A stretch of 64,000 nucleotides of DNA from Dehalococcoidia bacterium. GTDB taxonomy: Bacteria; Chloroflexota; Dehalococcoidia; Bin125. This document shows positions 11,792-62,713 of the stretch, one piece after another. Numbering within the stretch: position 1 is the stretch's first letter; each line of letters begins with the position of its first letter. Position numbers and translations under genes: made by a program. The notes beneath the pieces are model-generated. The model was not told the origin of the DNA. It saw nothing but the letters and a program-made list of their open reading frames with translations, and searched no databases. The stretch lies in the NCBI GenBank assembly GCA_963422755.1, contig OY730488.1; one strand, given 5' to 3'.

Positions 11792-12535
11792 GTGGTCACA
11801 ACCGCAGATTTTGCCGACCTACCCGGTCGCTTGATCGTGGTCGAGGGGATCGATGGCTCGGGCAAAAGCACCCAGCTCGATCTGCTGCACAAGTGGTTAC
11901 GCAGCGAGGGGTATGTCACGGTCTTCACTGAATGGAACTCGTCGCCGATCGTCCGCGACACCACCAAGCGCGGCAAGCGCAAACAACTGTTGACGCCGAT
12001 GTCGTTCAGTCTGATTCACGCAGCGGACTTCGCCAGCCGCACGTACGTGCAGATCTTACCTGCGCTGCAAGCGGGCGTGATCGTTCTGGCCGACCGCTAC
12101 GTGTACACGGCTTTCGCCCGCGACGCCGCGCGCGGCGTCAATCGTAAATGGGTGCGAGATCTGTATTCGTTCGCGCCGCCGCCTAATCTCGCGCTCTACT
12201 TCCATGTGTCTCTGGAAGAGTCCATCCGCCGCATCGGCGCCGCCCGAGACGAGATCAAGTTCTATGAGGCTGGCATGGACCTGGGTCTGGCGGAGGACGC
12301 GCGGGAGTCGTTTCGCCTGTTCCAGGGCCGCATCCTGGATGAATACGCATCGCTCTGCGACGAATACGACATCACGCGGATCGACGCCGCACAGTCGCTG
12401 GTCAACCAACAGGTGCAGGTGCGGCAGCTGGTGGAGCCGCTGCTCGCTGGGATGCCCCAGCGCGAGATCTCGAGCGTGCCGACGCATCTGCAGGCGGGGT
12501 TCGCCTCGCTGGCGGCAGGAGGAGGCGGCCGGTGA
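11792..12535 (+). CDS. Thymidylate-kinase-fold P-loop kinase (Tmk-like), paralog 1
   Basis: 247 aa. P-loop LIVVEGIDGSGKST, DRY motif VLADRYVY. GTG start with AAGGGA SD. Confidence 0.8.
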   Translation: MVTTADFADLPGRLIVVEGIDGSGKSTQLDLLHKWLRSEGYVTVFTEWNSSPIVRDTTKRGKRKQLLTPMSFSLIHAADFASRTYVQILPALQAGVIVLADRYVYTAFARDAARGVNRKWVRDLYSFAPPPNLALYFHVSLEESIRRIGAARDEIKFYEAGMDLGLAEDARESFRLFQGRILDEYASLCDEYDITRIDAAQSLVNQQVQVRQLVEPLLAGMPQREISSVPTHLQAGFASLAAGGGGR

Positions 12536-13221
12536 CCCAGGTCAAGTTCTACGGAGAGCCGCCGCCCGGCATCGAGCAGGACTGGCTGCCCGGCCGCCTG
12601 ATCGTGATCGAGGGCACAGACGGCGTGGGCCGCTCGACGATCATTTCGATCCTCAAGGACTTCCTCGAGGCGCAGGGCTGGGGCGTGGTCGACAGCGGCT
12701 TGCGCCGCTCGCCGTTAGTCGGCCCCGGCATCGATCAGGCCAAGGTGGGCCATACGCTGGATCCGATCACACTCAACCTGTTCTACGCCACCGACTTCTG
12801 GGACCGCTTCGAGCGGATCATGCTGCCAGCGCTGCAGGCGGGCATGGTGGTGTTGGCCGACCGCTACATCTTCTCGCTGATGGCGCGGGCGATTGTGCGC
12901 GGAGCGCCACGTGAGTGGCTGGAACAGATTTACGGCTTTGCGATGGTGCCTGACCAGGTGATCTATCTGGACATCGACGCCGAGGGCCTCGCCCTGCGCA
13001 TCCTTGAGCGCGGCTTCGATTTCTGGGAGTCCGGCGGCGACTACTTACACGACCGCAGTATCTACGACGGCTTCATGCAGCATCAACGCGAGCAGCTACG
13101 GGAGATGTTGGCCATGTCCGAGCGCTACGGCTGGGAAGTCGTGGACGCGCGCGGAACGATCGAGGAGGTCTTCGAGCAGGTCCGCCGCGTGGTCATGCCC
13201 ACGGTCGCCAGCATGTCGTAG
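12532..13221 (+). CDS. Thymidylate-kinase-fold P-loop kinase (Tmk-like), paralog 2
   Basis: 229 aa. Variant P-loop LIVIEGTDGVGRST (Lys->Arg), VLADRYIF. GTG start overlapping the paralog 1 stop, strong GGAGGAGG SD. Confidence 0.8.
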   Translation: MTQVKFYGEPPPGIEQDWLPGRLIVIEGTDGVGRSTIISILKDFLEAQGWGVVDSGLRRSPLVGPGIDQAKVGHTLDPITLNLFYATDFWDRFERIMLPALQAGMVVLADRYIFSLMARAIVRGAPREWLEQIYGFAMVPDQVIYLDIDAEGLALRILERGFDFWESGGDYLHDRSIYDGFMQHQREQLREMLAMSERYGWEVVDARGTIEEVFEQVRRVVMPTVASMS

Positions 13222-13300
13222 GACTTGCCGCGAGGCGTACTCCAGTCGCTCGTCGCCGCCGCTCATCGACCAGGCCGCGCGTGTATGCTAGGTCAGCCTG

Positions 13301-13376
13301 GCCGAGGTAGCTCAGTTGGTAGAGCACACGACTGAAAATCGTGGTGTCGGCAGTTCGACTCTGCCCCTCGGCACCA
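13301..13376 (+). tRNA. tRNA-Phe (anticodon GAA)
   Basis: GCCGAGGTAGCTCAGTTGGTAGAGC..., anticodon loop CUGAAAA, TPsiC GGCAGTTCGACTCTGCC, CCA encoded. Confidence 0.85.
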
Positions 13377-13383
13377 GCCTCAA

Positions 13384-16380
13384 CTAGTTCTCTGGCGTTT
13401 CCAGCGCGTCTGAGAGATATTCGACCACATGGCGCGGCTCGCGATCGGTGAAGTGGCCGATCTGCTGTCGACAAGAGACGCCAGTCACTGCCACCGGAAC
13501 GCCCAGCGCGTCGCGAATCGCGGGAAACAGCCTCAGTTCGCCCATCTGCCGCGATACCTCATAATGCTCGGATTCGAAGCCGAACGAGCCGGCCATACCG
13601 CAACAGCCGCTGTCGATCACTTGCGGGTCGTAGCCCGCAGCACGCAACACCGTCAACGTCTGGTCGAATCCCGCCAATGCCTTCTGGTGGCAATGCGGAT
13701 GTACGAGCAGTCGCCCGTGCGCGCCGTGAAACGGTCCTGACGCAACGGCGCCGTCAAGTTCCCGCGCGAGCCATTCATCGAACAGCCACGTCTGTGAGGC
13801 GACCGTCCGCGCGGCATCGTTGCGCAGCAACTGTGGATACTCATCACGGAAGGTCAGCAGACAGGATGGTTCCGTACCGATGATGGGCGTGCCGCGCCGA
13901 GCGTAATCCAACAGCGCGGCAACATTACGCTCGGCCAGTCGGCGAGCGTCGTCAAGCAATCCCTTCGAAACTGAAGGCCGCCCGCAGCAGGCGCCGCGCT
14001 CGATTCGGACGACGCGATAGCCGAGCGCCTCGATGATCCGCGTCGCCGCCATGCCGACCTCAGGATGCACATAGTTGGTAAAGGTGTCATCGAAGAGCAC
14101 AACCTCGCCGCGGAGCGTGCGTGCGTCGGTGGGTCGCGCGCGGCTGCGGAACCAGTGGCTGAACGTCTCACCGGCCAGCTTCGGCAGCGGACGTCGTGAA
14201 CCAATGCCGAGTTGCGCCGTGATTACTCGCGCTGGCCAAGTCGACGCGCATGCGTTGGCGAGCCGCGGCACCCGCGATCCCAACCGCAGCAGCAGCGCAA
14301 TGTGGGCGAAGATTCGATCGCGCAGCGGTACGCCGCGCGCGCGGTGCCGATGCGCCAGCACCTCATATTTGATCTTGGCCAGGTCGACACCCGACGGACA
14401 CTCCGCCTTGCAGGCCTTGCATTCGACGCACAGCTCCAACGCTTCGTACAGCCGGTCGCCCGACAGCTCCTCCAGCGGCATCGCGCCATTGAGCACCTGG
14501 CGCAGCAGGTTGGCGCGGCCGCGGGTGGAATGCTCTTCGTCCTGCGTGACCTGGAATGAGGGACACATACCGCCGTCGAATTTGCGACAAGCGCCTTGCC
14601 CGTTGCACATCTCGGCCGCGCGGGCGAGTCCGCCTTCAGCAGAGAAATCGAGCCAGTCGCCCGGATCATGATTGAGCGTCGCCGGGCTGAGCCGCAGGTT
14701 GTCGCGGAATGGCGGCGTATCGATGATCTTGCCGGGATTGAGCAGTCCGTCTGGATCGAAGATGCGCTTGGTCTCGCGGAACGCGTCGACCAAGCGCGCT
14801 CCGAACATCTTCTCCATGAACGCGCCGCGAACGATCCCATCACCGTGCTCCCCCGAGAGCGAGCCACCGAACTCGATCACCAGATCCGCAATCTCCGACG
14901 CCAGCGCCTCCGTCTGCTCCAGGCCAACAGGGTCTTTGACGTTGACTACCGGTCGGATGTGGAGGCAGCCGGCTGCGGCGTGTCCGTAGTACCCCGCTCG
15001 CAACCCCTGGGCCCGAACGGCGGCATCGAATCGGGCGACAAACTGCGGCAGCCGCTCGGGCGGCACAGCCGTGTCCTCGACGAACGCCACTGGCTTGGCG
15101 TCGCCATGCATCGACATCAGCAGCCCCAGTCCCGCCTGCCGCATCTGCCACATCCGCGCCTGTTGGGCGGAATCGGTCTCAGTGACGAACGCGTACCCCA
15201 TCCCCTGCGCGCGCAGCTCCGTCTCGATGGCGTGCAACTGCTCGGCAAGCTCAGCCTCGGAGTCGGCGAAGCATTCGATCAGCAGGATCGCCCCCGGCTC
15301 GCCGACGACAAACGCCGCCAGCGGTGCGTAGCCCACGCTGGATCGGCAGCGCTCGATGATGATGTCGTCGACCAGCTCAATCGCGGCGGGACGGTGGGCA
15401 TTGGCGGCGAGGGTCGCCTCGGCCGCTTCGATCAGCGTGTGAAAGTGCGCCGCCAGGATGCCTCGATACGCCGGCAGCTGGGCGAGCTGCACGGTCGCCT
15501 CGGTCACCACCGCGAGCGTCCCCTCCGAGCCGACGACCAGCTGCGACAGGTTGACGCCACCCGGATCCAGCAGCGCGTCGAGGTTGTACCCCGACACGCG
15601 GCGGGGGATATTTGGGTAGCGCTCGCCGATGCCATCGCGTTCGCGCTCGGCGAGCTCGCGGAGGTCGCGGTATAACCGCCCCTCGCGTCCGCCCTGGTCG
15701 ATCAGCGACCGCAGCCGTCGCGCGTCGACATGGTCGAAGCGCAGCCGTTCGCCGTCCGAGAGCACCACCTCCATCGCCTCGACGACATCAACCGTCTTGC
15801 CGTAGAGTCCGCTATGGGTTCCGCAGGAGTTATTGCCGATGCCGCCGCCGATCGTGGCTCGATTGGCGGTGGAGGGGTCGATGGGGTAGTGCAACCCATG
15901 CGGGCGGGCCGCCTTGTTCAGTTGTGACAAGACCAACCCCGGCTGGACGCGGGCACGCCGTCGCGCTGGGTCAATCTCCAGCACAGCGCTCATGTGACGT
16001 GTGAAGTCAAGCACGACTGCATGATTGACACCCTGTCCAGCGAGGCTGGTGCCGCCGCCGCGCGGCAGAACGGGTACGCCGTGCGAGCGCGCAATGCCCA
16101 CTGCAGCGGTGACATCGTCGTCGCTACGCGGAAACACGACGGCCACCGGCTCCATCTCGTAGAGAGACGCGTCGGTGGCGTAGAGCAGCCGCGAGGGGCG
16201 GTCGATCAGCAGGTCAGACGGGTCTGAGAGGGCGTCGCGTAGGTCGCCGGCGAGCCCGTTCAGCGCATTCGGGCCGTTGCTCAGCATCGCGCGAGCGCGT
16301 CGCACTGAGCGAAAGCTGGACGGCGCCGCGCCCGCAAGCACACTCCGAACAGACGACGGTGTGGTCACGTGAGCGCTCAT
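13384..16380 (-). CDS. FAD-binding oxidase fused to (Fe-S)-binding/CCG domains (GlcD-GlcF / YdiJ-like)
   Basis: 998 aa. N-terminal FAD-binding PCMH domain (PRGGGTSLAGQ), C-terminal 4Fe-4S ferredoxin motif CVECKACKAECP and cysteine-rich CCG domains. Start overlaps the tenI-like stop (ATGA). Confidence 0.85.
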   Translation of the reverse strand: MSAHVTTPSSVRSVLAGAAPSSFRSVRRARAMLSNGPNALNGLAGDLRDALSDPSDLLIDRPSRLLYATDASLYEMEPVAVVFPRSDDDVTAAVGIARSHGVPVLPRGGGTSLAGQGVNHAVVLDFTRHMSAVLEIDPARRRARVQPGLVLSQLNKAARPHGLHYPIDPSTANRATIGGGIGNNSCGTHSGLYGKTVDVVEAMEVVLSDGERLRFDHVDARRLRSLIDQGGREGRLYRDLRELAERERDGIGERYPNIPRRVSGYNLDALLDPGGVNLSQLVVGSEGTLAVVTEATVQLAQLPAYRGILAAHFHTLIEAAEATLAANAHRPAAIELVDDIIIERCRSSVGYAPLAAFVVGEPGAILLIECFADSEAELAEQLHAIETELRAQGMGYAFVTETDSAQQARMWQMRQAGLGLLMSMHGDAKPVAFVEDTAVPPERLPQFVARFDAAVRAQGLRAGYYGHAAAGCLHIRPVVNVKDPVGLEQTEALASEIADLVIEFGGSLSGEHGDGIVRGAFMEKMFGARLVDAFRETKRIFDPDGLLNPGKIIDTPPFRDNLRLSPATLNHDPGDWLDFSAEGGLARAAEMCNGQGACRKFDGGMCPSFQVTQDEEHSTRGRANLLRQVLNGAMPLEELSGDRLYEALELCVECKACKAECPSGVDLAKIKYEVLAHRHRARGVPLRDRIFAHIALLLRLGSRVPRLANACASTWPARVITAQLGIGSRRPLPKLAGETFSHWFRSRARPTDARTLRGEVVLFDDTFTNYVHPEVGMAATRIIEALGYRVVRIERGACCGRPSVSKGLLDDARRLAERNVAALLDYARRGTPIIGTEPSCLLTFRDEYPQLLRNDAARTVASQTWLFDEWLARELDGAVASGPFHGAHGRLLVHPHCHQKALAGFDQTLTVLRAAGYDPQVIDSGCCGMAGSFGFESEHYEVSRQMGELRLFPAIRDALGVPVAVTGVSCRQQIGHFTDREPRHVVEYLSDALETPEN

Positions 16381-23969: not shown

Positions 23970-24055
23970 TCTGAGAGGCTCGTCGCTCCCTGCGCCGGCA
24001 TTACCCGGATCAGGTTCGGCGGGTGTGTTCTCAGGCCCGAGTACGCTGGAGCGCG
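23970..24055 (-). ncRNA. TPP (THI-box) riboswitch
   Basis: Minus-strand sequence ...CGGGCCUGAGAACACACCCGCCGAACCUGAUCCGGGUAAUGCCGGCGCAGGGAGCGACGAG... matches the THI-box core (CUGAGA ... ACCUGAUC.GGUAAUGCC.GCG.AGGGA). It lies directly upstream of thiD. Confidence 0.85.
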
Positions 24056-24124
24056 ACCGGACCACCCCGGGATCGGTGTCGTAGCCAATGCTAACACACG
24101 GACCGTCCCATGCGGCGAGAGAGG

Positions 24125-29129: not shown

Positions 29130-29222
29130 ACCTACTCCTGTGCTGGTCCGATGTACCCAGCCTACCAGCGACGCTCGCCGCTCCACTATCCTGCGCCCAG
29201 ACGTACGTGACTGGAGCCGCAC

Positions 29223-30458
29223 ATGGTCCGCACCGAAGACATGCACCCCGACATGGCCAAGAACCTGCTCAGTCTGCCCCTGCCGCAGATCGAGCCTCAG
29301 CCGTGGATCGCGCCGCGACCGCTGGCGCAGACGACGGTGGCGATCGTCACCACCGCCGGCATGCATACGCATGGCGATCGCCCCTTCAATCCAGGATCAG
29401 TCGAGTATCGGCTGATCCCGGGCGACGTGGAGTACACCGACCTGCGGATGTCGCACCTGTCGGTCAACTTCGATCGCTCGGGCTTCCAGCAGGACATCAA
29501 CACCGTCTTCCCACTCGAGCGCCTGCGCGAGCTCGAGGACGAGGGCGTGGTTGGCGGGGTGAGCCGCTATCACTACTCGTTCATGGGCGCCCAAGCCGAC
29601 CCAACGCGGCTGGAGCGAACAGGTAAAAAGATCGGCCGACTGTTGGCCGAAGATGGTGTCCAGGCAGCTTTCCTGACACCCGTTTGACCGTTCTGCACGC
29701 GCTCCGTGGGAGCGCTGAGCCATTACATCGAGCTGGGCAGCGAGGGACGCGTCGCCACAGCGGGCGTCTCGTTGATCCGCGAGCACACACTCGGCATGCA
29801 GCCGCCGCGCGCGCTCTGGGTCCCCTTCCCGCTCGGACGCCCCTTGGGCGCGCCAGACCAGCCTGACTTCCAGCGCGATGTGCTGCGCGCCACCCTGGCC
29901 TTGCTGGAGTCGGCGACCGAGCCGACGCTCGCCGATTACCCGCACGACGCGCCGAGCTCGGGCGATGACCCCTGGGCCTGCGCCGTCGCGCTCACCCCAC
30001 CCGAGCCGTCCAGCGAGTCTGAGGCGCTGCGCGATCAGCTGGTCGAGGAGATTCGCCAGCTCGCGCCTTGGCATGCAGAGTCGCGCAAACGCCGAGGGCG
30101 CACGACCGTCGGCGTTTCGGGCGCCTCGGTCGATCAGATCGAAGACCTCGCCACGCTACTGGCGGATTTCGCGAGCGGCGTCGAGCCCTTGGACGGTGAC
30201 ATTGACTGGAACCATCCCATGCCGGTGCGCCTGAAGTTCGCCTCCGACGATCTGCGAGCCTTCTATCACGAGGCGGCGACGGCCCAACCAGGAGCGGGCG
30301 ATCCGACGGACGCCGAACTCAACGATTGGCTGTTCAATCAAACGCTGCTAGGGACCGTGTTGCGACAGATCGTCGGTCGGATGCGGGGGAGCGAGGATCG
30401 TCGTGTCGCCGGCCTCGTGATCGGCATGATTCCAGCTGGCTTCGCGCGTGCGCGCTAG
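29223..30458 (+). CDS. PrdB/GrdB-family (D-proline reductase subunit B-like) protein with in-frame TGA at 29685-29687; probable selenoprotein with C-terminal extension
   Basis: Two listed ORFs (29223-29687, 29706-30458) are in the same frame, separated by one TGA. Conservation runs across the TGA: ...YHYSFMG...AAFLTPV-[TGA]-PFCTRS...PRALWVPFPLGRPLG.... As I recall PrdB, its Sec region reads ...MHYGFMG...VVLTAG-U-GTCHRS...PRAVAPRVPMGANAG..., which this mirrors. A SECIS-like hairpin follows. Confidence 0.6.
29699..29715 (+). promoter_or_regulatory. Candidate bacterial SECIS hairpin
   Basis: GCGCUCC-GUG-GGAGCGC, a perfect 7-bp stem with a G/U-containing apical loop, beginning 11 nt 3' of the in-frame UGA. 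Confidence 0.55.
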
Positions 30459-34845: not shown

Positions 34846-34935
34846 GGAGGGTTCGCATAGTGGCCTAGTGCGCCCGCCTGCTAAGCGGGTTCGGGGGAGA
34901 CTCCGTCGAGGGTTCGAATCCCTCACCCTCCGCCA
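34846..34935 (+). tRNA. tRNA-Ser (anticodon GCU), type II
   Basis: Acceptor GGAGGGT/ACCCTCC, anticodon loop CUGCUAA, long variable arm TCGGGGGAGACTCCGTC, TPsiC GGTTCGAATCC, CCA encoded. Confidence 0.85.
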
Positions 34936-43936: not shown

Positions 43937-44509
43937 ATGTCCGAGAATGAGCTCCTGGATCTCGCGTTCGAGGATGCCAATACACGCATGGCCGGCGCCG
44001 TCAGCTCGCTGGATCGCGACCTGATGGTGATCCGCACCGGCCGCGCGCACACATCCCTGGTCGACCAGTTGCGGGTGGACTACTACGGGACCACGATGGC
44101 GCTCAACCAGCTCGCCACGATCTCGGCGCCAGAGGCACGGCTGATTGCGATCCAGCCTTGGGACCGCAACGCCTTCGAGCCGATCACGAAGGCGATTCAA
44201 GCCTCGGATCTTGGGATCAACCCGCAGTCTGACGGCATCCTGATTCGCCTGGCGCTGCCGGAATTGACTGAGGAGCGGCGACGCAACCTGGTCAAAATCG
44301 TGCACCAGAAAGTGGAGACGGCACGGGTGGCGATCCGCAACGTGCGCCGACATACTCACGATGATCTGCGCGGCCTGCAGCGCGACGGCGACCTGTCGCA
44401 GGACGAAGAACGGCGCGCGGAATCGCAGCTCGATACCCTGACCAGCGAGTTCATCGCTAAAGTGGATGCTGCGGGCAGTCAGAAGGAGCGCGAGCTCCTC
44501 GAGGTCTAG
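43937..44509 (+). CDS. frr: Ribosome recycling factor
   Basis: Start at MSENELLD. RRF family (TGRAHTSLVDQLRVDYYG...). Confidence 0.9.
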   Translation: MSENELLDLAFEDANTRMAGAVSSLDRDLMVIRTGRAHTSLVDQLRVDYYGTTMALNQLATISAPEARLIAIQPWDRNAFEPITKAIQASDLGINPQSDGILIRLALPELTEERRRNLVKIVHQKVETARVAIRNVRRHTHDDLRGLQRDGDLSQDEERRAESQLDTLTSEFIAKVDAAGSQKERELLEV

Positions 44510-44513
44510 TACA

Positions 44514-45347
44514 TTGTCCAGCCCATACGCCTCCACCGCTGCCCGACGCGACGCCGCCTTCGCCCATCCCGATCCACCCGAATCGTCTCTGCTCGCGCCA
44601 GTATCGGCGAACGGCCATCGGCTGCCGACTGAGCCAGCGCCGACCACACTCCTACCCAGCCATGTCGCGGTGATTATGGACGGGAACGGCCGTTGGGCAG
44701 CGCAGCGCGGGTTGCGTCCGACGGACGGGCACCGCGCCGGTACCGAGAATATCCGCGCCGCGATCGAGGCCTTCGCCGAGCGTGGCATCCACTGCCTGAC
44801 GCTCTTCGCATTCTCAACTGAGAACTGGAAGCGTCCGCGCCCTGAGGTGCGGGGCTTGATGCGGATCCTGTCGTCGACGATCGACCGTGAGCTCAGACCG
44901 CTGCACGACGCGGGGGTTCGGCTGCGCTACATCGGCAGGCTCGACGCGCTCGAGCAGCGGTTACGGCGCAAGATCGACGATGCGATCGCGCTGACCTGTG
45001 ACAACGACCGGATCACCGTCTGCATCGCCTTCAACTACGGCTCGCGAGCAGAGCTGGTGGACGCGGTACGCCAGATCGTCGCCAGCGGTGTAGGTCCGAA
45101 TGACGTGACCGAGCGGATGCTATCCGAGCATCTGTACACCCGAGACTTGCCCGACCCTGACCTGATCATTCGTACCGGCGGCGACCAGCGTGTCTCCAAT
45201 TTCCTGCTCTGGCAGGCTGCCTACGCCGAGTACGTGTTCTCGGACACCTACTGGCCCGACTTCGACGCGCGCGACATTGACCAGGCGTTGTCCGCCTACA
45301 CACAGCGTCAACGCAACTTCGGCGGACGCCCGGCGCGTGACGAGTAG
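44514..45347 (+). CDS. uppS: Isoprenyl transferase (undecaprenyl-diphosphate synthase)
   Basis: HVAVIMDGNGRWA ... FAFSTENWKRP ... cis-IPPS family. Start provisional (TTG at 44514 just after the frr stop). The listed ORF begins inside frr. Confidence 0.8.
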   Translation: MSSPYASTAARRDAAFAHPDPPESSLLAPVSANGHRLPTEPAPTTLLPSHVAVIMDGNGRWAAQRGLRPTDGHRAGTENIRAAIEAFAERGIHCLTLFAFSTENWKRPRPEVRGLMRILSSTIDRELRPLHDAGVRLRYIGRLDALEQRLRRKIDDAIALTCDNDRITVCIAFNYGSRAELVDAVRQIVASGVGPNDVTERMLSEHLYTRDLPDPDLIIRTGGDQRVSNFLLWQAAYAEYVFSDTYWPDFDARDIDQALSAYTQRQRNFGGRPARDE

Positions 45348-45414
45348 TCCACGTCTTCCGCACGGTCTGCACGGCGCGGGGCTGGGGCCTCGGCTGGTTA
45401 GCGCGGCGGTCGGC

Positions 45415-46197
45415 ATGCCGCTCATCATTGGCGTCGTGCTGGTGGGCGGACCGCTGTTTGCCGGGTGTGTCGCGTTGGCGTTGGTGGTGGCGCTGGGCGA
45501 GATTGCACGGATCGTCGGCGTCTCCGTACGGAGTCCACTGTTCCTCTGCGGGGCTGCGACGATCGGAGCGGTGATTGGGGCTGCGGAGAGTGCCGCGATC
45601 ACCATGTTCTGGCCCGTTCTGGCCGCGCTGATCGGGATCGCCTCGCTCACGACATGGACGGCCGTGCGCGAGGTCCGCGTTCCACAGCCGGCGCTGCTGC
45701 GGCCAATCCTCTCAAGCGGGCTGGCCATGCTGGGCGCGGCGCTCTATCTGGCTTTGCCGGGTGCGACGTTCCTGATGGTGCGGTCCGGTCCCGAGGGTAT
45801 GGACTGGTTTCTGATCGCAATCCTGGCCATTATGTCGGCCGACGCAACGGCCTACGCCGGCGGCCGTCTGTTCGGGCGACGTCAGCTGGCGGCGTCCGTC
45901 TCGCCCAACAAGACTGTTGAAGGCGCGATCTTTGGCTGGCTCGGCGGCTTCGGCGCGACGCTCGCGCTGGACCAGATTCTGGGCACGCAAGCAGGGCTCT
46001 GGCCCTTGCTCTTGCTTGCACTGACGCTACCGTTGCTCTCGCAGCTCGGCGACCTGACCGAGTCCTTGTTCAAACGCGCCATGGACGTCAAGGATTCCTC
46101 GCAGCTGATCCCAGGACACGGCGGCGTGCTCGATCGGCTCGACTCGCTCCTGTTTGGACTGCCCGTCGTATTCTTCTTCTTGCAATGGACGACCTAA
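45415..46197 (+). CDS. cdsA: Phosphatidate cytidylyltransferase
   Basis: C-terminal signature SQLGDLTESLFKRAMDVKDSSQLIPGHGGVLDRLDS, multi-TM. Start uncertain (first in-frame ATG; a non-ATG start slightly upstream is possible). Confidence 0.8.
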   Translation: MPLIIGVVLVGGPLFAGCVALALVVALGEIARIVGVSVRSPLFLCGAATIGAVIGAAESAAITMFWPVLAALIGIASLTTWTAVREVRVPQPALLRPILSSGLAMLGAALYLALPGATFLMVRSGPEGMDWFLIAILAIMSADATAYAGGRLFGRRQLAASVSPNKTVEGAIFGWLGGFGATLALDQILGTQAGLWPLLLLALTLPLLSQLGDLTESLFKRAMDVKDSSQLIPGHGGVLDRLDSLLFGLPVVFFFLQWTT

Positions 46198-47357
46198 GCG
46201 ACGAACCCACTCCGATCATCAATCTGGTGCTGCTGGGATCGACCGGCAGCATTGGGCGGCAAACGCTCGACGTGGTGCGTGCGATGCCCGAACGTTTCAA
46301 CGTGTTGGGGCTGGCCGCTGGCAGAAATCTGTCGGCGCTCGAGGCGCAGACGCAGGAGTTCCGTCCGCGTTACCTCTGGGCGGCGTCCGAGGATGAGACC
46401 GCGCTGGCCGAGATTGCCGACGGCGTCGGCGCGGCCGTCGCGCCGATGGATGAGATGGCCGCCGATCCTTCGGGCGATGTGCTGGTTGTGGGAACCGCCG
46501 GGCGGGCTGGGCTGGAGCCCACCCTGACCGCCCTGGAACGCGGCGGGGCGGTGGCGCTCGCGAACAAGGAAGTCGTCGTGATGGCGGGGCAGCTCGTCCG
46601 CGACGCCGTCGAGCGCGGTGGCGGTCAGCTGCGCCCAGTCGACTCTGAGCATTCCGCAATCTGGCAGTGTCTATGGGGCGAGGAGGACCATGAAGTTCGA
46701 CGCATTCTGCTGACCGCCTCGGGCGGGGCGCTACGCCATCTCGCAGTCGAGGCGCTGGCGATGGTGACGCCCGAGCAGGCGCTCGATCATCCGACTTGGA
46801 ACATGGGCGACAAGATCACCGTCGATTCTGCGACGTTGATGAACAAGGGTATGGAGACGATTGAAGCGAAGTGGCTGTTCGACGTCCCGTACGAGCGTGT
46901 CGAGATCGTGCAGCACGCCGAGTCCATTGTCCATTCGCTCGTCGAGTTCAGCGATGGCTCGGTCAAGGCGCAGCTGGGATATCCCGACATGAAACTACCG
47001 ATCCAGCTCGCGCTCGGCTACCCGCAGCGGCTCCAGCCGACGGTCGCACCACTCGATCTCGCAGCGGTGGGCGCGCTCCACTTCTCGCGTCCCGACCTCG
47101 ACCGCTATCCCTGCCTCAAGCTGGCGCAGCAAGCCGGCCGCGCCGGGGGAACCTATCCGGCCGTGATGGCCGCTGCGGACGAAATCGCCGTCGAGGCGTT
47201 CCTGGAACGCCGGCTCCGGTTCACTGAGATCGCCGACTACATCCTTCAGGCGATGGACGCGCACCGCAACACGCCGAACCCTGACATCGAGGGGATCGAC
47301 GCCGCTGACGCCTGGGCGCGGGGGTTCACGACGGGGCGCATCGCCGCCTCCGTTTGA
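46185..47357 (+). CDS. dxr: 1-deoxy-D-xylulose 5-phosphate reductoisomerase
   Basis: 390 aa. LGSTGSIGRQTLDVV NADPH-binding N-terminus. Conserved DXR core (SEHSAIWQCL...). Confidence 0.95.
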   Translation: MDDLSDEPTPIINLVLLGSTGSIGRQTLDVVRAMPERFNVLGLAAGRNLSALEAQTQEFRPRYLWAASEDETALAEIADGVGAAVAPMDEMAADPSGDVLVVGTAGRAGLEPTLTALERGGAVALANKEVVVMAGQLVRDAVERGGGQLRPVDSEHSAIWQCLWGEEDHEVRRILLTASGGALRHLAVEALAMVTPEQALDHPTWNMGDKITVDSATLMNKGMETIEAKWLFDVPYERVEIVQHAESIVHSLVEFSDGSVKAQLGYPDMKLPIQLALGYPQRLQPTVAPLDLAAVGALHFSRPDLDRYPCLKLAQQAGRAGGTYPAVMAAADEIAVEAFLERRLRFTEIADYILQAMDAHRNTPNPDIEGIDAADAWARGFTTGRIAASV

Positions 47358-47410
47358 CTGTCCATTGTGCTTGGCTGCCCTCACTTGCCCACACAGGTAC
47401 GCTAGAAACG

Positions 47411-49111
47411 ATGGTCTTCCTCGAAACGATCCTGCCGTTCATCGGCATTCTGCTCGGGCTCGTCGTGCTGCACGAGCTGGGACACTTCGTCGCCGCCAAG
47501 CTGGCCGGCGTGCGGGTGGAGGAGTTCGGCATCGGTCTGCCGCCCCGAATCGGCAAAGGCTGGCAGTTCGGCGAGACACTCTATTCCTTCAACTGGTTGC
47601 CGATCGGCGGGTTCGTACGTCTGACTGGCGAGGAGGCTTCGGGCCTGTTGGTGATCGACGTCGAGGAAGACTCCCCTTTCCGAGACCATCTCGTGGCCGG
47701 CGACCGCATTCTCCGGGTCAGCGGCAAACGCGTGGTCAGCCCGGACCAGCTCGTGGAGCGTCTGCTGGCCACCGCCGGCGAGCCGCAGTGGGAAGTCACG
47801 TACGACCACACAGAAGCTGACGGAGGCAAGACGACCTGGACCATCTCGCGACCCACGGGCAACGAGGCGTCAAGCCTGTCCAGCATCAACACCACTCCGG
47901 AGCAACGCCAGCAATTCCTGAACGAGCGTGGTGACGCGAGCATCTTCGGGATCAGCGTGGGCATCGATCCGCGCTCTCTGGGCGCGAAATCCCGGCTCAC
48001 GCGGATCGGCATCCTCGCCGCCGGCGCCGGTGTCAATGCGGTGCTGCCGTTCCTGCTCTTCGCCGTCGGCGCGTTGATTCCCGACAACGTGCCGGCTGGT
48101 CCAGCCGTCGTCACGAGCACCGTCCAAGGCGCGCCGGCGCACGAGGCGGGAATTCGCGCTGGTGACCACATCATCGCCGTCAACGGCGAGCCGATTCAGA
48201 ACGCATCCGACCTGTCACGACTGATCCAGCTCAACCTGGGCGAGCGACTCGAGCTGTCGGTCGAACGTCCGCCGTCGGGCGCGCTGACCGACAGCCGCGC
48301 GGCGCGCGAGCCCGAGCGGTTCGACACGCTCGTCCGCGCGCGGCTCGCGCCGCAACCGCTCACCCACGTGGTACAGCTGGACGACTCGGTGCACGACATC
48401 TCCGAAATCCTCGGCGTCCCGCCGGCGGCGGTGATCGCCGCCTGGGGAATCGAGACGGAGGAACTCCGGACCGGTCTCGAACTTGAGCTGCCCGGCGGCA
48501 TGACCTATGTCACACAAGACGGCGACACGATGCTGCGCATCGCGATCGAGGAGTCTGTGCGGATGGCCTCGCTCTACGCAGCGCTCGGGATTGACCCGCT
48601 GCATCCGCCGCCAGGGGCAGTGATCGAAGTACCCCAGGGCGCGACTGGCATCAGCATCGCCAACGGAACCACTCGCGTGATTCGCGACAGCCCCTCGCTG
48701 GGCGAGGCGGTCGCCTCCGGCTGGACCCAGACGCGCGACACGTTCATCCTCGTACGTAATCGGATTCGATCCTGGATTGCCGGCGGCGAGCCGATTGAGC
48801 TGTCGGGACCAGTCGGCATCGCGCGGGTCACGGGCGAGGTGGTCGACCGCGCCGGCTGGACACGGCTGATTGAGCTGGCTGCACTGATTTCGCTGAACCT
48901 TGCCATCATCAACATTCTGCCGCTGCCGATGCTCGACGGTGGGCGGATCATGTTCGTGCTCATCGAGATCGCGCGGCGTGGCAAGCGAATCAGCCCCGAG
49001 CGCGAAGGCCTGGTACACATGGCCGGCTTCGCGGCGCTGCTGCTCTTCATCGTCGTGATCAGCTACTTCGACATCATCAAGGCGGTCTCCGGAGAGCCCG
49101 CGATCCCCTAG
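47411..49111 (+). CDS. rseP: RIP zinc metalloprotease RseP (site-2 protease) with PDZ domains and a LysM-like insertion
   Basis: HEXXH (LHELGHFVAAKL) in the first TM, PDZ domains, LDG motif near the C-terminus (LPLPMLDGGRIMF). Segment YVTQDGDTMLRIAIEESV...LYAALGI resembles a LysM domain. Confidence 0.85.
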   Translation: MVFLETILPFIGILLGLVVLHELGHFVAAKLAGVRVEEFGIGLPPRIGKGWQFGETLYSFNWLPIGGFVRLTGEEASGLLVIDVEEDSPFRDHLVAGDRILRVSGKRVVSPDQLVERLLATAGEPQWEVTYDHTEADGGKTTWTISRPTGNEASSLSSINTTPEQRQQFLNERGDASIFGISVGIDPRSLGAKSRLTRIGILAAGAGVNAVLPFLLFAVGALIPDNVPAGPAVVTSTVQGAPAHEAGIRAGDHIIAVNGEPIQNASDLSRLIQLNLGERLELSVERPPSGALTDSRAAREPERFDTLVRARLAPQPLTHVVQLDDSVHDISEILGVPPAAVIAAWGIETEELRTGLELELPGGMTYVTQDGDTMLRIAIEESVRMASLYAALGIDPLHPPPGAVIEVPQGATGISIANGTTRVIRDSPSLGEAVASGWTQTRDTFILVRNRIRSWIAGGEPIELSGPVGIARVTGEVVDRAGWTRLIELAALISLNLAIINILPLPMLDGGRIMFVLIEIARRGKRISPEREGLVHMAGFAALLLFIVVISYFDIIKAVSGEPAIP

Positions 49112-55487: not shown

Positions 55488-57380
55488 ATGAGCGCGAAAC
55501 GGTCCATGCTTGGCGTCTATGAAGGATTCACCGATGCTATCGCCGACGGCTACGCGCGGGAATCCCAGTATCTAACGATGGCGGATGGTTGCCGCATCGC
55601 GATCGACGTGCTGCATCCGACACTCGGTGGCGAGATCGTTGATGGTCGGACGCCGACGGTGCTGCACGCGACGCCCTATCGGCGCGCGTTCGAGATCACG
55701 GGCAGGGCGGACCCGGTCGCGCGCTACGCCGAGGAACTGCGCAGCATGGAGCCCGGCCAACTGATCACGCAATATGAGGAGCGGCCGATCGCGCGGGATA
55801 TGATTCAGCACGGCTACCGATTCATCTCGGTCGACATCCGTGGCACCGGCGCCTCATTCGGCGCGGTGTACAACGATTCCTGGTTAGCCGGCCAAGACAT
55901 TGCCCAGGTGATTGACTGGATCTGCGAGCAGCCATGGTCGTCGGGGCGCGTCGGTATGGTCGGCATCTCGTACGAGGGGATGATGCAGTTCTTTACGGCG
56001 GCCCAGCGGCCTGTGGGGCTCAAGTGCATCGCCCCGCAGTATCCCGGCTTGCCGCAGTGTTACGTCGACGGGGGACTCGCGATCTCCAGCTTTGCGCGCG
56101 TCTGGGAACGGCTGCACAAGGGACTCTCGGAACACGAGCCGGCGGCACCCGTCGATGGACCCGAGGGTGAGCGCCTGCGCGACGCAGCGACCGCCGAACG
56201 CTCGTCCGACCGCTATCGCTGGGTAGAAACGTTCTCGAGCATGGATCCGCGCGACGTGACGCGCATGTCCTCATACGATGGCTTACGCCGACAGCAACGG
56301 CGCGCCGACGTCGGACTCGGTGAGGTGGCCAGCGGCTGGTTTGAGTCTTGCGACCTCGTGAACGCCAGCGGCGTCCCAACTTACCTGGTCACCGGGTGGT
56401 GGGACCTGACGTTCCCCGGCTATCTGATCGATGCATTCAACCGCCTGGACGTGCCCAAAAAGCTGATCGTGGGGCCGTGGAATCACGGGCAGGGCGGCGA
56501 TCCGGAGCTGCGCCGCTGGTTCGATTACTGGCTCAAGGACATCGACAACGGAGTGCTGGACGAGCCGCCCGTGCACTACGGCACCAGCGAGCCGTCGGGG
56601 GCGACGACCTGGAAGTCGGCGCCACGCCTGCCGCTGCCTGAAGCTGGCCTACGCGCGCACTGGCTGACCGCTGACGGCGCGCTCACAGTCGAGCGTCCCG
56701 GCGCAGCGGACACGCTGAGCTACGAGGTGGACCACACGGTCAGCCTGGGCGAGATGACGCGTCACAGCTACTACGTGGACGACATGTATATCAACACAAC
56801 CGACCTCAATGCGCGAGCCGAGCGATGCCTCACATTCACCAGCGGACCGCTGGCGGCCGATGTTGAAGTTACCGGCTGGCCCGCCATCGCGCTGGAACTG
56901 TCAACCTCCGCTGACTGTGGCGCAGTCGTGGTGACGCTGGAGCAACTCGACCAGGACGGATCGGCCGCCTATCTCTCGGAGGGATTCCTCAACCTCGAGC
57001 ATCGCCGTGTTGGAGGCGATCCAGGTGGACACGAGGGGCCTGTCTGGCATAGCTGGAGCAAGGCCGACCTCGCGCCGGTGGCGCCGGGCCAGGCGATGGA
57101 TGTGCAGGTCGAGCTGTATCCGATCTCATGCATCGCTCGCGCAGGTCAGCGGTTGCGGTTGACCATCGCCGGCGCCGATGCGGATAATCTGATCGTCCCC
57201 ACACAGGGCGGTGAGGCAACGCTGGCGATCCACGTTGGCGGCGAGCGAGGGGCGCGCCTGCTGCTGCCGATCGTGAACGAATCCGTCACACCAACGGCGC
57301 ATATCGTAGAGGGCGGCTTCAACGGAGGATCGGGCGGCTTCGCCTTCCGCCGCCCCGATGATCCACCGATGACACGCTAG
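55488..57380 (+). CDS. CocE/NonD-family hydrolase (X-Pro dipeptidyl-peptidase S15-like)
   Basis: Start at MSAKRSMLGV. Alpha/beta hydrolase domain with GISYEG nucleophile motif and C-terminal beta-sandwich. The 5' 780 nt of the listed ORF is antisense to the P450 and rejected. Confidence 0.8.
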   Translation: MSAKRSMLGVYEGFTDAIADGYARESQYLTMADGCRIAIDVLHPTLGGEIVDGRTPTVLHATPYRRAFEITGRADPVARYAEELRSMEPGQLITQYEERPIARDMIQHGYRFISVDIRGTGASFGAVYNDSWLAGQDIAQVIDWICEQPWSSGRVGMVGISYEGMMQFFTAAQRPVGLKCIAPQYPGLPQCYVDGGLAISSFARVWERLHKGLSEHEPAAPVDGPEGERLRDAATAERSSDRYRWVETFSSMDPRDVTRMSSYDGLRRQQRRADVGLGEVASGWFESCDLVNASGVPTYLVTGWWDLTFPGYLIDAFNRLDVPKKLIVGPWNHGQGGDPELRRWFDYWLKDIDNGVLDEPPVHYGTSEPSGATTWKSAPRLPLPEAGLRAHWLTADGALTVERPGAADTLSYEVDHTVSLGEMTRHSYYVDDMYINTTDLNARAERCLTFTSGPLAADVEVTGWPAIALELSTSADCGAVVVTLEQLDQDGSAAYLSEGFLNLEHRRVGGDPGGHEGPVWHSWSKADLAPVAPGQAMDVQVELYPISCIARAGQRLRLTIAGADADNLIVPTQGGEATLAIHVGGERGARLLLPIVNESVTPTAHIVEGGFNGGSGGFAFRRPDDPPMTR

Positions 57381-58294
57381 CGAGCGTTGAGCACTTTCTC
57401 GGGCTGCCAGGTCGCGGCGCTCAGCTCGTCGCGGCGCAGCACAGCAGTCACCTCACGCTCGGCGTTCAGGGCGAGCGCCTTGTCCCAGCCGTCAACGGGC
57501 GTGTGACGAATCGCCTGGCCACGCTTGACGCGCGCGAGCTGCTCACCGTGCAGGTGGAACTGGGGCCAATCAGGAAAGAGCTGGGCCGGTGAGAGAGCGA
57601 GCGACCAAATGTCGCCCTGCTCGGCGGCGGCGGCGAGCGCGGCGGGCGTATGCGCGTCCGTGGCTGAGTTGGCGCCGATCATCGTACGGCGCATTTCCGT
57701 CACATGCCCCCCGCAACCGAGCGCCTGACCCAAGTCCCGCGCGATCGCGCGGACATAGGTGCCCGTGCTGACCGACATCGACAGCGTCACGTAGGGTATG
57801 GCGACTGAAGTGACCACCAGCTCATGCACGGTCACCGGGCGCGGTTCGATCTCGACGTGCTCGCCCGAGCGGGCTGTTCGATAGGCGGCGACGCCGTTGC
57901 GCTTGACAGCACTGAATTGCGGCGGCGTCTGTTCGATGTCACCGCGAAACTGCTCGAGCGTGGCATCGATGTCCGCCGCGCTGAGGTCAGGCACTGGCGC
58001 TGTGGCGACGACCTGCCCCTCGCTATCGTCGGTGTCGGTCGCCTGGCCGAGCAGGATCGTGGCCTCGTAGGACTTGCGATACGGCGCGAGATACTCGTTC
58101 AAGCGGGTCGCCGCGCCGACGAAGATCGGCAACAGGCCGCTGGCCAGCGGATCGAGCGTGCCTCCGTGTCCGACACGGCGCAGCCCAGTCCATCGCCGGA
58201 GTTCGCGCACGATGTCGTGCGACGTTGGCCCTTGCGGTTTGTCAACGAGGAAGACCGCGCCAGGATGCTGCGGTTCGCGACGGCGACGGCTCAT
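57377..58294 (-). CDS. truB: tRNA pseudouridine(55) synthase
   Basis: 305 aa. GVFLVDKPQGPTSHDIV...GHGGTLDP catalytic Asp motif, PUA-like C-terminus. Confidence 0.9.
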   Translation of the reverse strand: MSRRRREPQHPGAVFLVDKPQGPTSHDIVRELRRWTGLRRVGHGGTLDPLASGLLPIFVGAATRLNEYLAPYRKSYEATILLGQATDTDDSEGQVVATAPVPDLSAADIDATLEQFRGDIEQTPPQFSAVKRNGVAAYRTARSGEHVEIEPRPVTVHELVVTSVAIPYVTLSMSVSTGTYVRAIARDLGQALGCGGHVTEMRRTMIGANSATDAHTPAALAAAAEQGDIWSLALSPAQLFPDWPQFHLHGEQLARVKRGQAIRHTPVDGWDKALALNAEREVTAVLRRDELSAATWQPEKVLNAR

Positions 58295-58743
58295 GAGGCG
58301 TCCAGAGCGCGCAGTCGTTCCTGCATCAGGGCCGCGCCGACGATGCGGGGATCGAACTCAAAGCGCAGCCGGGGCACACGTTTCATGCGCAGATGCCGCC
58401 GAATCGTGCGGTGGATAAATGGCGCTGCGCTGTTCAATGCGGCAATCGCATCCATAGCCAATGCCAGATCCTGATCGTCAGGCGTGTCGGGCGGCGGCAT
58501 CGCCGAGACCATCACGGTGGCATTGCCGAGATCACGCGAGGCGCGCACCTCGGTCACACTCACCAGCACCAACGACAGTCTGGGATCCTTGAGTTCGCGC
58601 GCAACCACTTCGGCGATCGTGTCACGCAGCAGCTCGTTGACGCGGTCCATACGATCGACGCCGTCGGCACCACGGGCGCTGAGCGCGCCATAGGGGCGCT
58701 GCCCGCGTGCAGAATTCCCACGTGCAGGGCGTGCCATGATCAT
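58291..58743 (-). CDS. rbfA: Ribosome-binding factor A
   Basis: RbfA KH-like core (RVNELLRDTIAEVV...LVSVTEVRASRDLGNATVMVS). N-terminal ~30 aa may be an over-extension; an internal Met start is possible. Confidence 0.8.
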   Translation of the reverse strand: MIMARPARGNSARGQRPYGALSARGADGVDRMDRVNELLRDTIAEVVARELKDPRLSLVLVSVTEVRASRDLGNATVMVSAMPPPDTPDDQDLALAMDAIAALNSAAPFIHRTIRRHLRMKRVPRLRFEFDPRIVGAALMQERLRALDAS

Positions 58744-58751
58744 GCCTGCGT

Positions 58752-60611
58752 TCAGCGAGCGACATTGCGGATTTCGCCGCCCTGGACGATTCGCGACTGC
58801 GTCTCGATGTGGAAGAACTCGAGCTGGTCCCCGGCGCGGAAGGTGTCGAAGCGGGCGAGCGCGACGCCAAACTCCTGGCCAGCATCCACTTCCTGCACAG
58901 TGTCCTGGAAACGCCTCAGGCTCGAGATCGGCGATTCTGCGATCTGTTCGCCGTTGCGGTACACATGGACTTGGGCATCATTGCGGATCGAACCGTCGAG
59001 TGAGCGACAGCCGGCGATGTTGCCCAGACCGCGAATCGGAAATACTTGCAACACTTCAGCGTGTCCGTCGACGACTTGCATCTGGACAGGCTGCAGCAAT
59101 CCGCTGATCGCCGCTTCGACCTGCTCGATCACCTCGTAGATGATCGAATAGCTGCGAATCTCGACGTGTTCCAGCTCCGCAAGGCGCTCGGCGCCGGGTT
59201 CGACCGGGATGTTAAACGCGACCACGAGTCCTTCGGATGCCAGCGCCAGGTTGACATCGGCAACTGAGACCGGTCCAGCGGCCGCGTGAATCACCTTGAC
59301 GGCGACCTCCTCATTGGAGAGCTGTTCCAGTGAGTCGCGCAACGCCTCGACAGAGCCGACGACATCGGTCTTGACGATCAGGTTGAGCGCCGAGACATCG
59401 CCGCGAGAGATCTCGCCGAACAGCGCGTCAAGCGAGGCTGAGTGCTGGATCTGAGCGTCGCGCGCCTCACGCTCGCGGCGCGCTTGCGTGTAGATTCGCT
59501 TCGCCTCTCGGTCGCTGCTGACGGTGCGGAAGGCGTCACCCGCCTCCGCAACGTCCTGCAATCCGAGTACAACGACTGGCGTGGAGGGAGGGGCTTCGCG
59601 GATGCGCTTACCGACAAAGTCGGTCATCGCCTTGATCCGCCCCCAGGTCTGTCCAACCAGCAGGGCATCGCCCTGCCGCAGCGTCCCGCGCTGGACCAGC
59701 AGGGTCGTACGTGGGCCTTGACGGCGGTCGAGCTCAGCCTCGAGGACGACGCCAGCGGATGCGCGTCCGGGATTCGCACGTAGCTCCGCGAGGTCGGCGA
59801 CGAGCACCAGAGTTTCCAGCAGCTCATTCATGCCGTCGCCGCGCGTGGCCGAGACGGGGATCAGCGGTACGTCGCCGCCGTACTCCTCGACCTGTACACC
59901 CACGTCTGCGAGCGCCGCCTTGACGCGGTCGGGATTGATGTTATCGAGATCCATCTTGTTGAGCGCCACGACGTACGGCACGCCGGCTGCGTGAATGTGG
60001 CTGATCGCCTCGCGCGTCTGAGGCATGACGCCATCGTTGGCGGCGACGACCAGCACAGCGATATCCGTAGCCTGGGCGCCGCGCGCGCGCATTTCAGTGA
60101 AGGCGGCGTGGCCGGGTGTGTCGATGAAGGTGATCAAGCGTTCGCCGACAGTCGCTTGATAGGCCCCGACCCGCTGCGTGATCCCGCCCGCCTCACCAGC
60201 GGCGACGTTGGCGTTGCGGATGTAATCGAGCAGCGAAGTCTTGCCGTGGTCGACATGACCCAGCACGGCGACCACCGGCGGGCGGTCCTGCAAGCTCGCT
60301 GGATCATCCGCATCTTCGTCCCCGGTGCCCAGCAGATCGATCGCCGTGCGCGTTTCCTTCTCTTCGACGACGTCGCCGGCTTCCTCCGGCTCGAAACCGC
60401 GTTCCATCGCGACGATAGCCGCGGTGCCATAATCGAGCGTCTTGGAGACGTCGGCCATAATGCCGTTGGTCATCAGCGTCTTGATGATGGTGACGGGTGT
60501 ATCGCCGAGCAGGTCCGCCAGCTCGCGCACGGTCAACGTACGCGGAATGAGCACCGTGCCGTCGGGCGGCGCGGACGTGGGCGATTGGCGAGTGCGCTGT
60601 TGTGTGGTCAT
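58752..60611 (-). CDS. infB: Translation initiation factor IF-2 (short N-terminus form)
   Basis: 619 aa. G-domain ([21 protein letters not shown]) and C-terminal beta-barrels. Lacks a long N-terminal domain. Confidence 0.9.
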
Positions 60612-60638
60612 GGCGAACTCCGTCTGGATGATGAAAGG

Positions 60639-60938
60639 CTACGCGATTCGTTGGAGCTGAGAGAGCAGGGCGGCGGTGGGAGCGCAGCGCAAGGCGCGGG
60701 CGAGGTGCTTCGGCTGCGCAGCAGCCGTGCGCAGGCAGCCCGCATCGCGGTGGAGATAGGCGCCGCGCCCGTGAGCGTGATCACTCATCGCCAGCGCCCC
60801 GTCGGGTCGTCGGACGACCCGCAGCAGCACTGATTTGGGCGCGGATATCCGACATACCACGCATCGACGACGCGGACCGTCAGCGTTCGGAGACGGCGGA
60901 GGAAGGACCGTACCGTGAGTCGACTGTGGAGCAGGCAT
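60639..60938 (-). CDS. YlxR-family (DUF448) RNA-binding protein
   Basis: RRCVVCR...LLRVV...GRGAYLH signature. Conserved position between nusA and infB. Confidence 0.75.
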   Translation of the reverse strand: MPAPQSTHGTVLPPPSPNADGPRRRCVVCRISAPKSVLLRVVRRPDGALAMSDHAHGRGAYLHRDAGCLRTAAAQPKHLARALRCAPTAALLSQLQRIA

Positions 60939-61012
60939 CGAATTCCTTTGCACTCCGCAGGCTGGAACTGGCGTTGACGCCTACGAGCGAGATGTGACCA
61001 GCGCAGAGCGCC

Positions 61013-62485: not shown

Positions 62486-62713
62486 CGAGTCAGCCGTCCA
62501 GCTAGAAACACACAACGAGTCAGCATGGGACGGGTCTGTACCTGCGGCGCAGGATCAGACCAGGCCGCCCGACCCTCACCCAGCCTCCACATAGTTGACT
62601 ATACACCGCATCCTGACTGCCAACGCAGTCAGTAGCGCTAGCAGCTCTAGTGATCTCTATGGCATAGACATCAGCATCGGCGACAATCGCTTGGGCGCGT
62701 CGCGTGACGCGGG

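Follow-up and report, generated by a model that had tools for sequence, protein, structure and literature searches.

A Dehalococcoidia gene with an in-frame UGA is a new member of a known PrdB-like selenoprotein family

We analysed a stretch of 64,000 nucleotides from a Dehalococcoidia bacterium (contig OY730488.1 of assembly GCA_963422755.1; hereafter the window), and in particular the gene at positions 29223-30458 of its plus strand. The frame opened by the ATG at 29223 contains a single internal stop, the TGA at 29685-29687. The product of this gene is a cytoplasmic selenoprotein of 411 residues belonging to the GrdB/PrdB superfamily, with selenocysteine (Sec) at codon 155, and the gene is a new Dehalococcoidia member of a selenoprotein family that is already known. 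Its features are the following.

29213-29216, plus strand: GGAG motif resembling a Shine-Dalgarno sequence, 6 nt 5' of the ATG at 29223, seen in the sequence
29223-30458, plus strand: complete selenoprotein gene of 411 codons, with Sec at codon 155 and a TAG stop at 30456-30458
29292-29918, plus strand: PrdB-like alpha/beta domain, residues 24-232, from TIGR04483, PF07355 and a structure model
29685-29687, plus strand: UGA selenocysteine codon (codon 155), from comparative evidence
29685-29696, plus strand: U-P-F-C redox motif, Sec155 to Cys158, from alignments; a nearly invariant Thr-Arg follows
29699-29715, plus strand: putative selenocysteine insertion sequence (SECIS) hairpin GCGCUCC-GUG-GGAGCGC with a perfect 7-bp stem and apical loop at 29706-29708, from folding and covariation
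29955-30455, plus strand: family-specific C-terminal region, residues ~245-411, conserved in Sec and Cys forms

The Sec site reads AAFLTPV-U-PFCTRSVGAL in the window protein, whose N-terminus, MVR, is common to its homologs. Gene callers split the gene into an open reading frame (ORF) of 154 aa labelled 'GRDB' and a second one of 250 aa carrying no annotation. An exact look-up of the 250-aa sequence gave no record, and a public genome 99% identical to the window (relative P0001) was used instead; there too the gene is annotated as two ORFs. The called start of the second ORF, GTG 29706, is the Val codon of the hairpin's apical loop. The orphan ORFs of ~250 aa in related loci are likewise called from the conserved GUN Val codon of this loop, and many database fragments start with M/V-G-[AG]-L. 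The original prediction, made from the letters of the window alone, had read the ORFs 29223-29687 and 29706-30458 as one frame interrupted only by TGA, had seen a perfect hairpin 11 nt past the UGA, and had named an unknown small protein, a divergent membrane protein and sucCD as neighbours. The sequence confirmed the 411 codons and the hairpin at 29699-29715, and it showed a divergent DUF3159/IspA-like membrane protein upstream and sucC/sucD downstream.

To place the TGA in a comparative frame, one genome per species was scanned, and 80 loci were returned from Dehalococcoidia, Acidimicrobiia, Alpha-, Beta-, Gamma- and Delta-proteobacteria, Sumerlaeota and other hosts. In each of the 80 the Sec column holds an in-frame stop, and when tandem paralogs and the window are counted, the codon is TGA at each of the 86 sites and never TAA or TAG. 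The phyla with the TGA form include Chloroflexota, Actinomycetota, Pseudomonadota and Desulfobacterota; the Dehalococcoidia loci are 80-86% identical, and several come from metagenome-assembled genomes (MAGs) with sponge-style isolate names. Full-length relatives have Cys (CPxC) at the Sec column, so that the comparison of Sec and Cys forms came out as a selenoprotein would predict. An exhaustive profile search returned 3463 relatives at E<=1e-3, 425 of them at E<=1e-30. Among the top 149 representatives, 128 are fragments shorter than 300 residues, 81 of which begin right after the UxxC segment, while 20 have at least 330 residues and 16 of these 20 show CxxC at the site. The Sec form therefore makes up most of the diversity of the family.

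Purifying selection acts alike on both sides of the TGA. Over 13 same-clade orthologs, the median ratio of nonsynonymous to synonymous divergence (dN/dS) was 0.096 upstream and 0.083 downstream (dS ~1), and the same-frame sequence downstream of the TGA contained no stops. Moreover, the TGA and the first possible restart codon are separated by the P-x-C-T-R codons, which show little or no variation. Equal selection on the two parts, together with these conserved codons, rules out a pseudogene or a two-gene arrangement.

The chromosome of 3,638,100 bp that carries the 86% ortholog L001 also has two tandem paralogs (L086, 9497-10828 and 11242-12570), each with TGA in PV-U-PxCT and a hairpin of its own; at least three Sec-containing copies are therefore present in a close relative's genome. 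In Alphaproteobacteria, tandem Sec-containing pairs about 1.2 kb apart were seen at five loci (L030, L034, L037, L048 and L057), lying downstream of murJ and glnD in four of them.

The hairpin begins 11 nt after the UGA (+14 to +30), and its offset is fixed over the 86 sites. We assessed covariation over 83 distinct sequences aligned without gaps (helix columns 21-27/31-37, 500 shuffles). Results showed that the helix columns are paired in 87% of cells, that five of the seven pairs changed on both sides, and that compensatory cells number 21 against 4.7 expected, values that none of the 500 shuffles reached. When the register was slid by 1-3 nt, pairing fell to 29-60%. The first base of the apical loop is an invariant G and the second is U in more than 90% of cases; the stems of paralogs are quite different, as in GGUACC-GUC-GGUACC. 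The predicted energy of the hairpin has a median of -10.7 kcal/mol in Sec forms, compared with about -5 in two independent Cys-form lineages. The window hairpin was compared with bacterial SECIS elements of the Escherichia coli fdhF type and with the bSECISearch consensus of Zhang & Gladyshev. It resembles them in its position in the coding region 11 nt after the UGA, its G(U) loop, its G+C-rich stem and its covariation; on the contrary, its triloop is very short, the bulged U is absent, it has no Rfam match, and the closest relatives show a stem that is in part broken or displaced. Altogether, the comparison supports a functional-looking bacterial SECIS, and Sec insertion at codon 155 by the SelB/SECIS route is predicted on comparative grounds.

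Homology runs across the UGA, as the original prediction had proposed by comparison with the Sec region of clostridial PrdB. In hidden Markov model (HMM) searches with the Sec of the window protein replaced by Cys, the NCBIfam PrdB model TIGR04483 matched in one stretch over residues 24-232, spanning codon 155 (E=1.6e-32, 112.8 bits; profile positions 15-222 of 238). The Pfam family GRDB (PF07355) matched residues 23-152 with 41.5 bits, above its gathering score of 22, and TIGR01918 gave 49.2 bits, under its cutoff of 65.45; passing the former and missing the latter indicates membership at the superfamily level only. Full-length relatives (408-427 residues) can be aligned with the window protein over their entire length and place PVCPNCSR opposite PV-U-PFCTR. 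Residues 233-411 lie outside the 238-position PrdB profile, adding about 165-180 residues for which no Pfam or NCBIfam match was obtained. This C-terminal region is shared with the full-length Cys relatives (W-A-C-P, P-W-Y, RRGRTTVG, DLKAFY-EA, AQPG). It is conserved in all Sec-form loci examined, in the aligned full-length Cys forms and in published metagenomic reads, with W-A-C (Cys253), P-W, RRGRTTVG, D-L-R-A-F-Y-x-E-A and A-Q-P-G as invariants. The C-terminus of ~165 aa that the original prediction took to be novel is thus no novelty of the window gene but a feature of the family.

An AlphaFold2 model was built for the Cys homolog P0069 (predicted local distance difference test, pLDDT, 86; predicted template modelling score, pTM, 0.85). 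In this model the alpha/beta domain has a Rossmann-like three-layer fold, and the CxxC motif corresponding to UxxC lies in the loop that connects a beta-strand with the helix N-terminus, where redox-active pairs usually sit. The C-terminal domain is modelled as a bundle of six or seven helices, and no structural relative of it was found in the PDB.

We also looked at gene neighbourhoods, covering about 8-10 kb on either side per genome at more than 80 loci. In the window, the neighbours encode Ldh_2, the DUF3159 membrane protein, SucCD, a GNAT protein and a hydrolase, in agreement with the earlier statement that no prd or grd genes lie nearby. Within the surveyed distance no grdA, grdE, grdC or grdD neighbours turned up and no context of prdA, prdC or prdDEF recurred, and a Pfam scan of ~45 neighbours gave no PrdA/GrdE-type protein. 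The description of the gene as an orphan is right in terms of operon context only, given the three paralogs in the nearest complete relative genome.

Taking these results together, we hold with high confidence that a single Sec-encoding gene, read by SelB with the help of a SECIS element, specifies a protein that would run a PrdB-like reductase cycle, probably working without a PrdA/GrdE partner and probably on a substrate other than D-proline. The original prediction of a probable selenoprotein with a SECIS, standing alone, agrees with the invariant TGA, the covarying hairpin and the lack of a nearby prd/grd partner. Recoding by SelB and a SECIS is the standard bacterial mechanism. The mRNA hairpin 11-31 nt downstream of UGA-155, with G first in its apical loop, would recruit SelB loaded with Sec-tRNA(Sec), and UGA-155 would then be read as selenocysteine. 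The selenolate would act as the catalytic nucleophile and attack a small substrate at an electrophilic centre; the adduct would be resolved by Cys158 to give a Se-S bond, which a cellular thiol or disulfide-reductase system would reduce again. Such a cycle would resemble that of PrdB/GrdB, probably with no pyruvoyl PrdA/GrdE partner, whose part in binding substrate or reductant may fall to the C-terminal domain.

Several observations weigh against this interpretation. Neither selA, selB, selD nor tRNA-Sec was found within the 64-kb window, and SelA matches could not be tied to the genomes of this clade. Taken as a single sequence, the hairpin is only mildly unusual, as an equally good one (perfect, at least 7 bp, 8-20 nt after the TGA) occurs after 23 of the window's 1746 TGA triplets (1.3%), so that the case for it rests on the comparative evidence, which is strong. 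The 66-nt fold does not exceed shuffled sequence in stability (z = +0.67), and no Rfam SECIS family matched it, either at the gathering threshold or in a permissive scan. In the closest relatives (L001-L014), a GGA to UGU change (Gly to Cys, giving SVCAL) leaves two of the seven positions unpaired, and folding predicts in its place a shifted, more stable hairpin of 8 bp with the loop UCC, suggesting that the exact SECIS geometry varies within the clade. The neighbourhoods are heterogeneous and give no consistent clue to the substrate, no neighbour family recurring beyond single lineages. Moreover, we infer both the catalytic cycle and the lack of a need for PrdA, with about 8-10 kb on each side covered per genome.

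For the Sec machinery there is good indirect evidence: SelA is common in Dehalococcoidia MAGs, and in other genomes the family gene lies close to the sel genes or tRNA-Sec. SelA or SelB is encoded beside it at L024, L025, L054, L060 and L061, tRNA-Sec lies within a few kb at L025, L054, L060 and L061, and SelD-like matches were found nearby at L024, L025, L060, L061, L064 and L077. At L054 (10001-15703) the order is family gene, an ORF of 221 aa, selA (12175-13593), selB (13590-15515) and tRNA-Sec (15608-15703). This proximity to selA, selB or selD, with tRNA-Sec in four of the five loci that have selA or selB, could mean that the protein serves selenium handling, reducing selenium compounds or delivering them to SelD, rather than catabolism. 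In addition, the L058 copy lies near a gene with radical SAM (rSAM) and DUF3641 domains, which we take to be a known selenoprotein family. However, sel genes adjoin only about 5 of the 80 loci, and joint inheritance of the Sec trait with its main client protein would be expected to give such clustering too. There are Cys forms in contexts with no sel genes, and up to three paralogs per genome fit a diversification of substrates better. We consider a role in selenium handling unlikely.

The protein could also be a genuine PrdB of D-proline reductase, with PrdA and PrdC/D/E/F encoded elsewhere in the genome. TIGR04483 is indeed its best HMM match, the U-x-x-C motif is present, and the literature label is 'proline reductase'. 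The window protein shares with PrdB (TIGR04483; Kabisch et al. 1999) a homologous alpha/beta domain, Sec at the equivalent position of U-x-x-C and, presumably, a reductase cycle with a Se-S intermediate. On the contrary, its 112.8 bits stand against an equivalog cutoff of 300, and its 411 residues, with the extra helical domain that extends beyond the profile, against about 240. A prdA/prdC/prdDEF context does not recur, and hosts extend beyond amino-acid-fermenting anaerobes to surface-ocean and other aerobic lineages. The number of paralogs per genome and the TIGR01918 score below cutoff speak against this assignment as well. By considering that the score is far below the cutoff, that no PrdA-type partner recurs and that a helical domain is added, we conclude that the window protein is probably not a true D-proline reductase, and identity with PrdB appears quite unlikely. 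The GrdB/GrdF/GrdH proteins (PF07355) are related through the Sec-bearing C-terminal half of GrdB, but the window protein lacks the N-terminal half of GrdB, of ~200 residues, and falls short of the TIGR01918 cutoff. GrdB has the motif UxxCxxC, in place of which the window family has UPxCTR.

A third possibility is that the UGA is recoded to something other than Sec, by read-through with Trp or Cys or by a genome-wide reassignment, as might be thought from the absence of the Sec machinery in the window and from SelA not being tied to this clade's genomes. Of the 13 other confident genes in the window, 6 end with UGA as an ordinary stop, so that UGA is not reassigned genome-wide. Cys at the same column in relatives lacking the UGA makes a classic Sec/Cys pair. 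The hairpin occupies the placement of a SECIS with an invariant loop G, and family genes adjoin selA, selB and tRNA-Sec in several genomes. Recoding to another amino acid is accordingly very unlikely. Finally, two separate genes or a pseudogene, with the TGA as a true stop or a nonsense mutation, would suit the public annotation of two ORFs and the possible start at GTG 29706, but this is exceedingly improbable given a TGA kept at every site across phyla, full-length Cys forms joining both halves, P-x-C-T-R codons preceding any restart codon, equal selection on either side, and a covarying hairpin whose apical loop is the supposed start.

The selenoprotein itself had been proposed as novel, a claim that the published record refutes. 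In the Sargasso Sea survey (Zhang & Gladyshev 2005, PMC1088965), 'Proline reductase PrdB' counted 42 Sec against 1 Cys sequence, and in the Global Ocean Sampling (GOS) survey (Zhang & Gladyshev 2008, PMC2398784) 'Proline reductase' counted 235 Sec against 110 Cys, placing the pfam07355/UxxC family among the most abundant marine selenoproteins in both. Counts of the family also appear in surveys of 2005-2007, and related surveys list 'proline reductase' selenoproteins for Anaeromyxobacter, Geobacter and the Olavius Delta-1 symbiont, the last being the source of our locus L043. The GOS supplement gives 'Proline reductase' sequences with U annotated. The GOS read JCVI_READ_802599 is 47% identical to the window protein over residues 40-346, across the Sec site (E=8e-91), and includes PV-U-PxCTR, PPRAxWVPF-LGRP-G-P, W-A-C-P, P-W-Y and RRGRTTVG; JCVI_READ_929035 matches the C-terminal region up to residue 398 (33% identity, E=1e-42). 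As these reads carry both the U and the C-terminal region, the family was already catalogued.

The GOS/Sargasso set contains the same family as the window, and Sec forms exceed Cys forms in both surveys as in our own search. That set is heterogeneous, while the window adds a Dehalococcoidia ortholog. The GOS sequences (PMC2398784, supplementary file 3, part 21) mix at least three subtypes, PV-U-PxCTR (the window family), PN-U-PVCHQ and PS-U-GLCNQ, which differ in their N- and C-terminal regions. In the marine selenoproteome surveys covered here, the family is not separated from true PrdB, and neither the C-terminal domain nor the absence of PrdA is discussed. A paper on a methyltransferase cluster was also considered and set aside, as it is not about the family of the window gene.

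We lean, with moderate confidence, towards a broader view of the group of ~410 residues with PV-U-PxCTR and a helical C-terminal domain: that it is a self-sufficient selenoenzyme other than proline reductase, working on a new substrate, needing no pyruvoyl partner and ending in a domain whose fold has not been seen before, and that it ranks among the most widespread selenoproteins outside anaerobic fermenters, being found in several phyla, in up to three paralogs per genome and mostly as Sec forms. If so, the 'PrdB' label of an abundant marine selenoprotein is a misnomer hiding an uncharacterised enzyme family. The name 'proline reductase' is about 20 years old, though the family has neither that enzyme's partner subunit nor its score. 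Essentially all public genomes that carry the Sec-form gene show it wrongly as two ORFs, with the 250-aa half filed as a Pfam-less 'hypothetical protein', and joining the two parts again would put hundreds of records right. Ocean and sponge-associated bacteria carry the family in abundance, and Sec is kept over Cys in most of its diversity; the identity of the substrate would explain why many aerobic bacteria retain the costly Sec machinery. The window itself adds only one more ortholog.

Some neighbours recur within restricted sets of loci. A TauD-family dioxygenase gene (PF02668) adjoins the family gene at Cys-form loci and at two Sec-form alphaproteobacterial loci (L081-L084, L059, L064), and sulfatases and a major facilitator superfamily (MFS) transporter are also close by at some of them. 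This context may be a hint to the substrate; as a general context it was rejected, being found in about three lineages only. At four Desulfobacterota loci (L047, L058, L065 and L071) a regulator with MEDS and HTH_17 domains (DcmR-type) lies 13-42 nt downstream of the family gene, and it was likewise discarded as a general context, these four being its only occurrences. Past the regulator, L071 has genes for a DUF547 protein and a pyridine-nucleotide disulfide reductase, and L058 has the rSAM+DUF3641 gene. These two contexts and that of methionine-biosynthesis genes were each confined to one lineage and were not retained. The largest 'cluster' of neighbours turned out to be antisense shadow ORFs of the GC-rich gene itself.

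Within the window, a search for other in-frame-TGA candidates gave shadow-frame artefacts only, such as one at 45918 inside cdsA, and the scan for promoters and terminators gave nothing informative. The only match obtained by tblastn with SelA, SelB and SelD queries, SelB-like and at 59805-60275, is a false one to the GTPase domain of translation initiation factor IF-2 (infB), in the nusA-infB-rbfA-truB operon. A terminator-like hairpin with a T-run lies inside the selenoprotein gene on the opposite strand (29632-29650, minus), probably by chance. The window has an even base composition of ~65% GC, with no island signature.

A thiamine pyrophosphate (TPP) riboswitch was identified at 23970-24079 on the minus strand (Rfam RF00059, 58.7 bits), and the near-identical contig L085 shows thiamine-biosynthesis genes (thiG, thiS, a thiE-like gene and others) in this region. 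Housekeeping operons are present at 44466-49111 (uppS-cdsA-dxr-rseP, plus strand) and 57377-62515 (nusA-infB-rbfA-truB, minus strand), and a cluster of tRNA genes for Met, Val, Leu and Arg lies at 252-745. A tRNA-Ser(GCU) gene at 34846-34935 keeps its place relative to the selenoprotein gene, 5-8.5 kb downstream and mostly at ~6 kb, in the 15 clade loci long enough to include it.

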